Assembly: GCA_947384775.1 (NCBI GenBank) | Contig: CANDIF010000002.1 | Coordinates: 123,967 to 187,966 of the forward strand | Source of the DNA: an uncultured Clostridium sp. | Lineage (GTDB): Bacteria; Bacillota; Clostridia; TANB77; CAG-508 | Length of the DNA stretch: 64,000 bases | Reading direction: 5' to 3' | In this document: piece after piece, positions 28,217 through 28,954 of the stretch | Position numbering within the stretch: position 1 is the stretch's first letter | How the letters are laid out: every line of letters begins with the position of its first letter | Translations under genes and position numbers: made by a program | The notes under the pieces: generated by a model | Seen by the model: the letters and a program-made list of their open reading frames with translations, nothing else | The model's database searches: none | Told to the model about the DNA's origin: nothing

Positions 28217-28558
28217 TTAAATAAAATTTCGATAAAAAAAATTAAATATTTCTTTTTTATGAACTTCAAAAAATAAATTAGAATTTTGCTTTCCACTAAT
28301 TATGTATCTTATAAAAACTGTATTAAGCTTTTCTGAAGCAACGTAAATTATTCGATAGTTCTCACAGATTCGTTCTCGGTAATATTTGTTTGGTATCTCA
28401 TGGACATATCTTCCAATATATGGTGCATATTTTATTAAATCAATCAATTTATATATATTGTTTATAACCCTATTTGCATAATTATCAGAAATCTTTGATG
28501 TAAACTCTGTAATATCTTCTATATTACCTTGAGCCTTATCCGATATTGAGATTTTCAT
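28217..28558 (-). CDS. Type II toxin-antitoxin system toxin, ParE/RelE family
   Basis: 113 aa with a ParE-like pattern (...LIDLIKYAPYIGRYV...ENYRIIYVASEKLNTVFIRYI...). It overlaps the upstream small gene by 23 nt. Confidence 0.6.
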   Translation of the reverse strand: MKISISDKAQGNIEDITEFTSKISDNYANRVINNIYKLIDLIKYAPYIGRYVHEIPNKYYRERICENYRIIYVASEKLNTVFIRYIISGKQNSNLFFEVHKKEIFNFFYRNFI

Positions 28559-28727
28559 ATTTTCGCATTAAGTCCTCTTTTGACTCTTCTAATGTACATA
28601 CTCTACCATTTTTTATATTTTCTTCGCTTTCCTCTAACATCATGAAAAAAACTAAGTTATATATAAAATCGTATAATGTATTTTCTTCTGTTTCCACTTC
28701 ATTTAAAGTTCTTTTTATAAATTCCAT
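28536..28727 (-). CDS. Putative cognate antitoxin (small acidic protein)
   Basis: 63 aa acidic protein translationally coupled to the toxin. Its ...NGRVCTLEESKEDL... C-terminus resembles antitoxin C-termini. The family assignment is uncertain. Confidence 0.45.
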   Translation of the reverse strand: MEFIKRTLNEVETEENTLYDFIYNLVFFMMLEESEENIKNGRVCTLEESKEDLMRKYENLNIG

Positions 28728-28729
28728 TT

Positions 28730-28954
28730 TTATTCACCTTCTTCTTTTATATTTTTACCATCAAGTATTTCTTTTAATGTTTCATAATTGAGATGCTTAT
28801 TAGTTCCTGGAATAATAGTTGTCTCATCTTCTCCATATCTGTTTATATATTCCATCATAAGTTTAAACGCCATTTCTGTTGGTTTTAAACCATCAAAATA
28901 ATCTTCTGGTACAGAATTTACAATGTCTAGCATTCTTTGTTTTACATCTGGCAT
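28730..28954 (-). CDS. Hypothetical 74-aa protein, first gene of the three-gene toxin-antitoxin-like operon
   Basis: Its stop codon is 2 nt from the antitoxin start. No recognisable motif. Confidence 0.4.
   Translation of the reverse strand: MPDVKQRMLDIVNSVPEDYFDGLKPTEMAFKLMMEYINRYGEDETTIIPGTNKHLNYETLKEILDGKNIKEEGE

Follow-up and report, generated by a model that had tools for sequence, protein, structure and literature searches.

The window considered here, a stretch of 64,000 nt from an uncultured Clostridium sp. (contig CANDIF010000002.1, positions 123,967 to 187,966, forward strand), carries on its minus strand three small co-directional genes, here called A, B and T, the last of which encodes a protein of the RelE/ParE toxin superfamily. 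The question raised by this locus is what the first gene contributes to such a module. The original prediction, made from the sequence alone, saw a three-gene, translationally coupled RelE/ParE-type toxin-antitoxin module, and this core reading is supported by the analyses described below. We think it probable, though by no means certain, that the genes form a chromosomal, self-contained, three-cistron type II toxin-antitoxin operon in which B is the antitoxin and A is an accessory subunit acting together with B. The features concerned are the following.

28730–28954, minus strand: gene A, 74 aa, ATG start, acidic (isoelectric point, pI, 4.60); conserved orphan, the third component
28536–28727, minus strand: gene B, 63 aa, ATG start, acidic (pI 4.36), helical; putative antitoxin
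28217–28558, minus strand: gene T, 113 aa, ATG start, basic (pI 9.28); toxin of the RelE/ParE superfamily
28961–28966, minus strand: Shine-Dalgarno sequence AAGGAG of gene A, read from the sequence; AAAGGAG is conserved in the upstream alignment
28987–29020, minus strand: predicted promoter, recognised by its conservation across loci

The three reading frames are arranged as had been described, with 2 nt between the stop codon of A and the ATG of B and an overlap of 23 nt between B and T. Across all loci this overlap ranges from 20 to 29 nt. T has no well-placed ribosome-binding site, the sequence GAGGA lying about 15 nt 5' of its ATG, and its translation therefore probably depends on that of B. 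At the other loci A and B are separated by 14–22 nt, and B has a Shine-Dalgarno sequence of its own. The A protein of the window is 74 residues long, compared with the usual 70. Its C-terminal extension (...IKEEGE, 28730–28745) crosses what in other loci is the stop codon together with a 15-nt spacer bearing B's AAAGGAGG. A thus reads past its usual stop, which reduces the gap to 2 nt and places the ribosome-binding site of B within the coding sequence of A.

Profile similarity of T to ParE/RelE had been named beforehand as the point on which the toxin-antitoxin assignment could be refuted. With 34.2 bits (E = 4e-8), T clears the gathering threshold of 23 bits for Pfam PF05016 (ParE_toxin), and the match extends over residues 3–92 of T and over positions 1–88 of the 89 in the model. 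The family-pattern motifs cited in the original prediction were also found in T. Further matches were to phrog_2455 (E = 1.4e-12) and to phrog_5232, annotated ‘toxin’, in PHROGs. PF05016 was recognised in all of the T homologs (232/232), and one homolog cluster is named by NCBI ‘type II toxin-antitoxin system RelE/ParE family toxin’. The Pfam match suggests that T adopts the RelE/ParE fold. The closest annotated relatives are RelE/ParE toxins of Vibrio plasmids (30–35% identity), which are partnered by Phd/YefM antitoxins.

The family assignment is compatible with two targets, as PF05016 includes both ribosome-dependent mRNases and gyrase inhibitors (PMC11980606). Compared with solved structures, the T family profile gave similarly weak matches to YoeB (E = 0.12) and to ParE1 (E = 1.9), and the score for TIGR02385 (RelE_StbE) was 17.3 bits, under the cut-off of 27.9. 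Comparison of T itself with the sequences in the Protein Data Bank (PDB) gave chance-level matches only. In the profile alignment with YoeB, itself a weak match, the invariant residues E54 and R69 of T align with E46 and R65, and the position of H83 is taken by I86; we take these three YoeB residues to be catalytic.

T continues past the end of the Pfam model with a conserved C-terminal extension of about 21–25 residues (from ≈ 88–93 to 113; window 28217–28294). Its pattern is SGKQNS.LFFEVHKKE..F, within which F96-F-E-V-H-K101-x-E103, including H100 and K101, is invariant in an alignment of 20 sequences (A3). Ordinary PF05016 members lack the extension, which may contribute to catalysis, touch the target or bind a partner.

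The 63-aa product of B is acidic (see above), as had been noted. It has 71 homologs (56–100% identity). In the B alignment a hydrophobic helix, N16-T-L-Y-D-x-I-Y-x-L-x-F27, is invariant, and G-R-V-x-T (41–45) forms a second motif. The AlphaFold2 (AF2) model contains three helices, with a predicted local distance difference test (pLDDT) score of 72, and a fold search with this model returned no match. No DNA-binding domain was found in B by Pfam search or in the AF2 model, and no family of Pfam, NCBIfam, PADLOC or PHROGs was matched by B above threshold. The B-family profile, run against all PDB sequences at E values up to 10, likewise gave nothing relevant. The only recurring signal was to DUF2683 (PF10884), an uncharacterised helical family to whose C-terminal 50 positions about half of the B family aligns weakly. 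Such matches appeared in 12 of 25 B-family members (positions ≈ 17–66 of 66), with a best score of 23 bits against a gathering cut-off of 27; window B gave no match and no family member reached the gathering threshold. A literature search for DUF2683 returned no established function, only a generic helical-hairpin assignment.

The original prediction had also considered a novel antitoxin, A, paired with a degenerate one, B. This alternative is not supported, because B is not degenerate. It is under purifying selection (ratio of nonsynonymous to synonymous substitution rates, dN/dS, of 0.27) and contains invariant motifs. Every locus with an intact T retains it, and covariation with T is strongest for B.

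That the first protein lacks a recognisable fold was confirmed by sequence, profile and fold comparisons. A matched no family of Pfam, NCBIfam, PADLOC or PHROGs above threshold, and its hits to DUF1409 were short and sub-threshold and were discarded as noise. Against PDB sequences only chance-level matches appeared, the searches with A, B and T returning a designed repeat protein, ARP4 and ribosomal L22. No fold match was obtained, no helix-turn-helix (HTH) or ribbon-helix-helix (RHH) motif was seen, and there was no match to the SecB family. A and B are not recognisable as paralogs of each other (hhalign probability 0.2%). The 179 homologs of A are 75–99% identical. An alignment of 24 sequences revealed the invariant motif Y40-G-E-D-E-T-T-I-x-P-G50 ... 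K53-H54 and the invariant basic residues K5, R7, K24 and K31. The protein is acidic in its N-terminal half as well.

An exhaustive HMMER scan of 1.84 billion representative proteins with the A profile yielded 26 proteins, which constitute one family together with fragments. The family is known only within the module, since each representative examined adjoins B and T or a derivative of them. Two further similarities were set aside. A protein of 799 aa (P0211) built of tandem repeats (...SVRLDYFHNKLPTELIHIF...) matches residues 12–29 of A nine times (E = 4e-9), which was judged a chance or compositional similarity amplified by the repeats. A protein of 141 aa (P0201; L032:1474-1917) combines, in one reading frame, the second half of A (starting near residue 27) with a DUF6145 domain; the contig has 1.2x coverage and is probably a chimera or rearrangement, and it was not used. 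At one further locus (L064:1501-2400) an intact A is followed, from the ribosome-binding site of B onwards, by an unrelated gene for a zinc-ribbon and TM2-like membrane protein in place of B and T. This arrangement, seen on a single metagenome contig of 4.7 kb, is either a real replacement or an assembly chimera.

The order A-B-T was found in the window and in all 23 related loci of the first sets, which came from look-ups seeded on A or B and from a genome scan seeded on T. The two A lineages that diverge most (P0194, P0204) likewise have a B-like gene and, after it, a PF05016 gene downstream of A. A metagenome scan seeded on A added 80 loci, 45 of them with an intact trio and the rest cut by contig ends or representing derivatives. 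In total 71 intact trios were obtained, of which 45 are distinct. They lie in up to 16 flanking contexts when grouped at the nucleotide level, for example ychF/XRE (the window), recD2/rplQ, spoVG/yceG, cotJ/P-type ATPase and prmC/CBS; the housekeeping genes murT, ychF, polC, spoVG, cotJ and rplQ are among the flanks. The hosts are without exception uncultured Clostridia, found in the guts of humans, mice, rabbits and ruminants. No match was obtained on plasmids by tblastn with A and the B-family member P0187, nor in phages or viruses by blastn of the module against phage genomes and an A-seeded scan of IMG/VR. PADLOC gave no matches, and no association of the module with phages, plasmids or defence islands was found.

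All three genes are under purifying selection. Among 11 distinct loci dN/dS is 0.15 for A, 0.27 for B and 0.24 for T, at a dS of about 0.8–0.9 for each. At this degree of synonymous divergence conservation is at the protein level and does not reflect an overlapping nucleotide element. Conservation of the 74-aa reading frame was another point on which the original prediction could have been refuted; A is conserved and is the most constrained of the three genes.

The natural variants of the module are informative with respect to the division of labour. Toxin-inactivating changes with A and B retained account for about ten separate events. They comprise an internal deletion of 260 nt in T (L008), further frameshifts, truncations or internal deletions of T (L018, L021/L044, L022, L051, L058, L066/L074, L073 and L099) and a clean deletion of T in a lineage of 12 contigs, in which A is intact and B nearly so. 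At one additional locus (L023) A and T are both frameshifted and B is truncated at its N-terminus. Among the loci examined, none had an intact T beside a broken A or B. Such asymmetric decay is the classical signature expected of a live toxin.

In a second type of variant, A and B are joined. An in-frame fusion of A(1–44) to B(8–62) lies directly 5' of an intact, overlapping T in one lineage represented by 10 contigs (L024–L026). The fusion lacks the invariant motif of A and the first seven residues of B, and because it shares its chromosomal context with normal trios it arose by a deletion of about 100 nt. The A part in this lineage is only 52–61% identical to other A sequences, compared with a mean of 87% for normal A(1–44), while B (up to 78% identity) and T (up to 68%) are as in normal trios. 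With A diverged, B and T normal and T intact, neutralisation would not need an intact A and would rest on B. The fusion also suggests that A and B belong together functionally and that, once they are fused, the A motif becomes dispensable and the constraint on A relaxes or changes.

Covariation between the proteins was surveyed by an exploratory mutual-information analysis, whose outcome fits neutralisation by B. Out of the top 50 inter-protein column pairs, 40 join B and T (≈ 26 expected), 6 join A and T (≈ 15 expected) and 4 join A and B, A having few variable columns. Several pairs connect residues 46–54 of B with residues 10, 19 and 42 of T.

The trio is thus a real and conserved operon, as seen in its gene structure, the family of T, the selection on all three genes, their co-occurrence, the decay of T, the fusion, and an A protein without a known fold. 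The contrast in charge between the acidic A and B and the basic T fits the preferred reading, in which B is the antitoxin and A its accessory partner. According to this model, the operon would be read from its own extended -10 promoter in the order A, B, T. T would be a toxin with the RelE/ParE fold, acting by ribosome-dependent mRNA cleavage or by gyrase poisoning. B would be the antitoxin proper, devoid of a DNA-binding domain, and probably folds onto T via its invariant hydrophobic helix and its C-terminal helix; we infer both the toxicity of T and its neutralisation by B from these sequence comparisons. Dependence of T translation on that of B would hold the toxin below the antitoxin. A would be a family-specific third subunit that acts with B as an accessory or regulatory portion of the antitoxin with a gene of its own. 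It most likely binds B or the B-T complex and would not be required for neutralisation as such.

Several points weigh against this model. Shared ancestry confounds the covariation, whose two strongest pairs fall within the B/T overlap and are trivial. The large metagenome scan was seeded on A, so that loci which have lost A cannot show up in it. The sets seeded on T or B hold four toxin-only decay events, too few to demonstrate a specific protection of A. Some of the frameshifts come from contigs of low coverage and could be artefacts of assembly. In the fusion lineage, the A part may have drifted through adaptation instead of relaxation. Finally, neither A nor B resembles a DNA binder through which the operon might be autoregulated.

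The suggestion in the original prediction that A is a third component is strengthened by the obligate co-occurrence and by the natural A::B fusion, whereas the two roles offered as examples, a regulator of the PaaR2 type and a chaperone of the SecB/TAC (toxin-antitoxin-chaperone) type, are disfavoured by sequence, fold and charge. Both roles exist in broader forms that need to be weighed.

The first of these, which overlaps the preferred explanation and is one concrete form of it, is possible, and we put it forward tentatively. A may stabilise or enhance the antitoxin, either by shielding B from proteolysis or aggregation as in SecB/TAC-like systems, or by boosting neutralisation in the manner of PasC. 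Tripartite systems with such helpers exist (PMC6377645; PMC4803016). In TAC, a tripartite type II system, a SecB-like chaperone encoded last acts on an antitoxin that bears a chaperone-addiction extension (PMC6377645). In pasABC of plasmid pTF-FC2 the small PasC aids the antitoxin without being a repressor, PasA being the DNA-binding repressor (PMC4803016). PasC is the functionally closest precedent for an accessory A. Within B, the very hydrophobic invariant helix NTLYDFIYNLVFF might need shielding, and the covalent fusion makes the most conserved motif of A dispensable, as would be expected if this motif served to tether A to B. However, A is not SecB-like in sequence or fold, and no sign of a chaperone-addiction extension was seen on B. 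The helper is encoded downstream in TAC and, following the toxin, in pasABC, and A is encoded first. The size of A, 70–74 aa, also differs from that of the SecB-like helpers of TAC, which have about 150–180 aa.

We think it unlikely that A is instead the transcriptional regulator of the operon, with B as an antitoxin that lacks a DNA-binding domain, so that the module would be an analogue of paaR2-paaA2-parE2 or would contain a split antitoxin. The upstream region is among the points in its favour. In an alignment of 15 loci from different contexts, a conserved block TAGTAA-N17-TG.TATACT ends 30–43 nt before the ATG of A. In the window the predicted extended -10 element consists of TG at 28998–28997 and TATACT at 28995–28990, with TAGT(G/A)A at -35 (29018–29013) and a spacer of 17 nt. 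A generic promoter scan scored this region no higher than shuffled sequence, and the promoter call therefore rests on conservation across loci; the predicted promoter travels with the module between contexts. An inverted repeat spans it (GTAGT, 29019–29015; ACTAC, 28992–28988), and most loci have the form (A/G)TAGTA-N20-TACTA(T/C). A two-sided G..C change of the arms occurs in the window and in one other locus (L015) and was not seen in three more (L010, L011, L013). The repeat may be a candidate operator, or it may merely consist of the promoter elements themselves. Its conservation over -35 and -10 and the paired change in two loci would suit a regulator encoded within the operon, as would the invariant K5, R7, K24 and K31 of A. 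No recognisable DNA-binding domain was found in A, B or T by family and fold searches, and Rfam elements in or 5' of the operon were chance matches only.

The precedent is the paaR2-paaA2-parE2 system of E. coli O157:H7, whose PaaR2 is an HTH regulator of the CI type and belongs to the immunity region of a prophage (Hallez et al. 2010; PMC8630535). The order regulator-antitoxin-toxin would be shared, and PaaA2, like B, lacks a DNA-binding domain (PMC8630535). Both modules consist of three co-directional genes with an extra first gene, a middle antitoxin of about 63 aa and a PF05016-type toxin in last position. However, PaaR2 is an HTH repressor of about 15 kDa, while A has 70–74 aa, is acidic and contains no HTH or known fold, and the present module is chromosomal without a link to phages. 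Structures of PaaA2 are present in the PDB; sequence and profile searches of the PDB detected no similarity of B to PaaA2 or of A to PaaR2. The likeness is one of architecture, not of membership. A as a repressor of the PaaR2 type was rejected, since it shows neither HTH nor RHH, is acidic including its N-terminal half and has no fold match.

The split antitoxin takes its model from the Phd/YefM modules with RelE/ParE toxins, such as those of the Vibrio plasmid (L033), which resemble the present one in the toxin superfamily and in an upstream antitoxin gene overlapping the start of the toxin. By eye, the C-terminal tail of the Phd/YefM antitoxin resembles the ...ESEEDIKNGRV.T.EE... segment of B. 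In contrast to the two small proteins and the T extension found here, those modules have one antitoxin of 80–95 aa with a DNA-binding and dimerisation domain. Because the nearest annotated relatives of T pair with Phd/YefM, we examined whether A and B together could be a split Phd/YefM, A corresponding to its N-terminal domain and B to its C-terminal tail. This was rejected: with five Phd/YefM reference sequences, hhalign gave probabilities of 0.4% for A and 0.5% for B, and the registers, collinear by eye, were not significant. PF02604 did not match the A- and B-family members at E values up to 10. In favour of a regulatory A, the A::B fusion recreates the two-domain layout usual among antitoxins, and a tolerable loss of autoregulation would fit the drift of the A part.

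Two further proposals have A gating the system. It is distinctly unlikely, though of interest, that A represents a toxin-antitoxin component of a new kind, a small acidic subunit with a new fold, neither repressor nor chaperone, which would gate the module, for example by sensing a trigger and controlling the release of T from B or by docking on the T extension. Gating of this kind would explain how A can be the most constrained gene and yet be lost by fusion without killing the host. Still less probable, in our view, is that A is a second antitoxin, an anti-antitoxin or a trigger sensor that touches T itself, for example via the T extension, and controls its release, for example upon phage infection. 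A shares the acidity of antitoxins, and T is basic; the conserved extension of 21–25 residues, absent from ordinary PF05016 members, could be a partner site, and the stronger constraint on A than on B or T might fit several partners. Contact between A and T is, however, at odds with the depletion of A-T pairs among the top 50 (6 against ≈ 15 expected), although A has few variable columns. In the fusion lineage, moreover, a truncated and drifting A coexists with an intact T that keeps its extension, and the lack of PADLOC matches and of any association with phages, plasmids or defence islands also speaks against this proposal.

That A is an unrelated hitch-hiker which shares the promoter and has a toxin-independent function is very improbable, for although A is intact in toxin-less derivatives and, in one locus (L064), precedes another gene served by B's ribosome-binding site, the former are close relatives (12 contigs, one lineage) in which retention of A may be recent history, the latter is the single 4.7-kb contig mentioned above, the A family (26 of 1.84 billion representatives) is always beside B and T or a derivative where examined, and the in-frame A::B fusion persists on 10 contigs.

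In the window, the module is flanked on one side by ychF and murT and on the other by an XRE-like gene, a pilin-like gene, a GNAT gene and polC, an arrangement that recurs in many samples. The original prediction had placed the module next to an XRE regulator and pilin-like genes. These are real neighbours in this species, and as they are absent from the other contexts of the module they are neighbours and not parts of it. The XRE-like gene (29302–29586, minus strand) scores 16 bits against HTH_3 and HTH_19, below both thresholds (23 and 30, respectively). As an open reading frame it starts with TTG and encodes 94 aa; the gene called in related contigs has 89 aa. It runs in the same direction as the module, from which it is separated by about 350 nt and a hairpin, and it is not kept adjacent in other species. 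The hairpin (29088–29117, minus strand) is very stable and has a stem of 13 bp, GGCACATTTGCTT-TGTA-AAGCAGATGTGCC, and lies between the XRE-like gene and the predicted promoter. Its 91-nt context folds at −23.2 kcal/mol (z = −3.96 relative to shuffled sequences). On the minus strand it is not followed by a U-tract, and Rfam gave no match. It may be a terminator or an insulator of the XRE transcript.

The 5' end of the pilin-like gene (29718–31230, plus strand) is apparently frameshifted. From the ATG at 29718 a frame of 32 codons can be read (MKKENFKNENRNHSN...), which is out of frame with the pilin-like reading frame of 451 aa. Upstream, the latter continues as ...KIGITLIALIITIIVILILVAITIKV..., a hydrophobic N-terminus of prepilin type. 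An A/T-rich run of short homopolymer tracts, GAAAATTTTAAAAAC, would be the place of the shift, which could represent a pseudogene, phase variation or an error of sequencing. Pfam gave no match for the 451-aa product.

Three-component type II systems are few (omega-epsilon-zeta, paaR-paaA-parE, pasABC and TAC), and each is informative on the regulation or stabilisation of antitoxins. The present module overturns no concept, in that its toxin and overall logic are conventional; it is the third component that is new. It adds a family that is abundant in human and animal gut Clostridia and whose extra component, without a detectable relative or known fold, is the slowest-evolving of the three. The natural variants, namely the T deletions, the A::B fusion and the subsequent drift of A in that lineage, already mark out the role of A. 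Two small orphan protein families thereby gain a functional context, and the module represents a compact, tractable case for what a third subunit adds to a RelE/ParE module.

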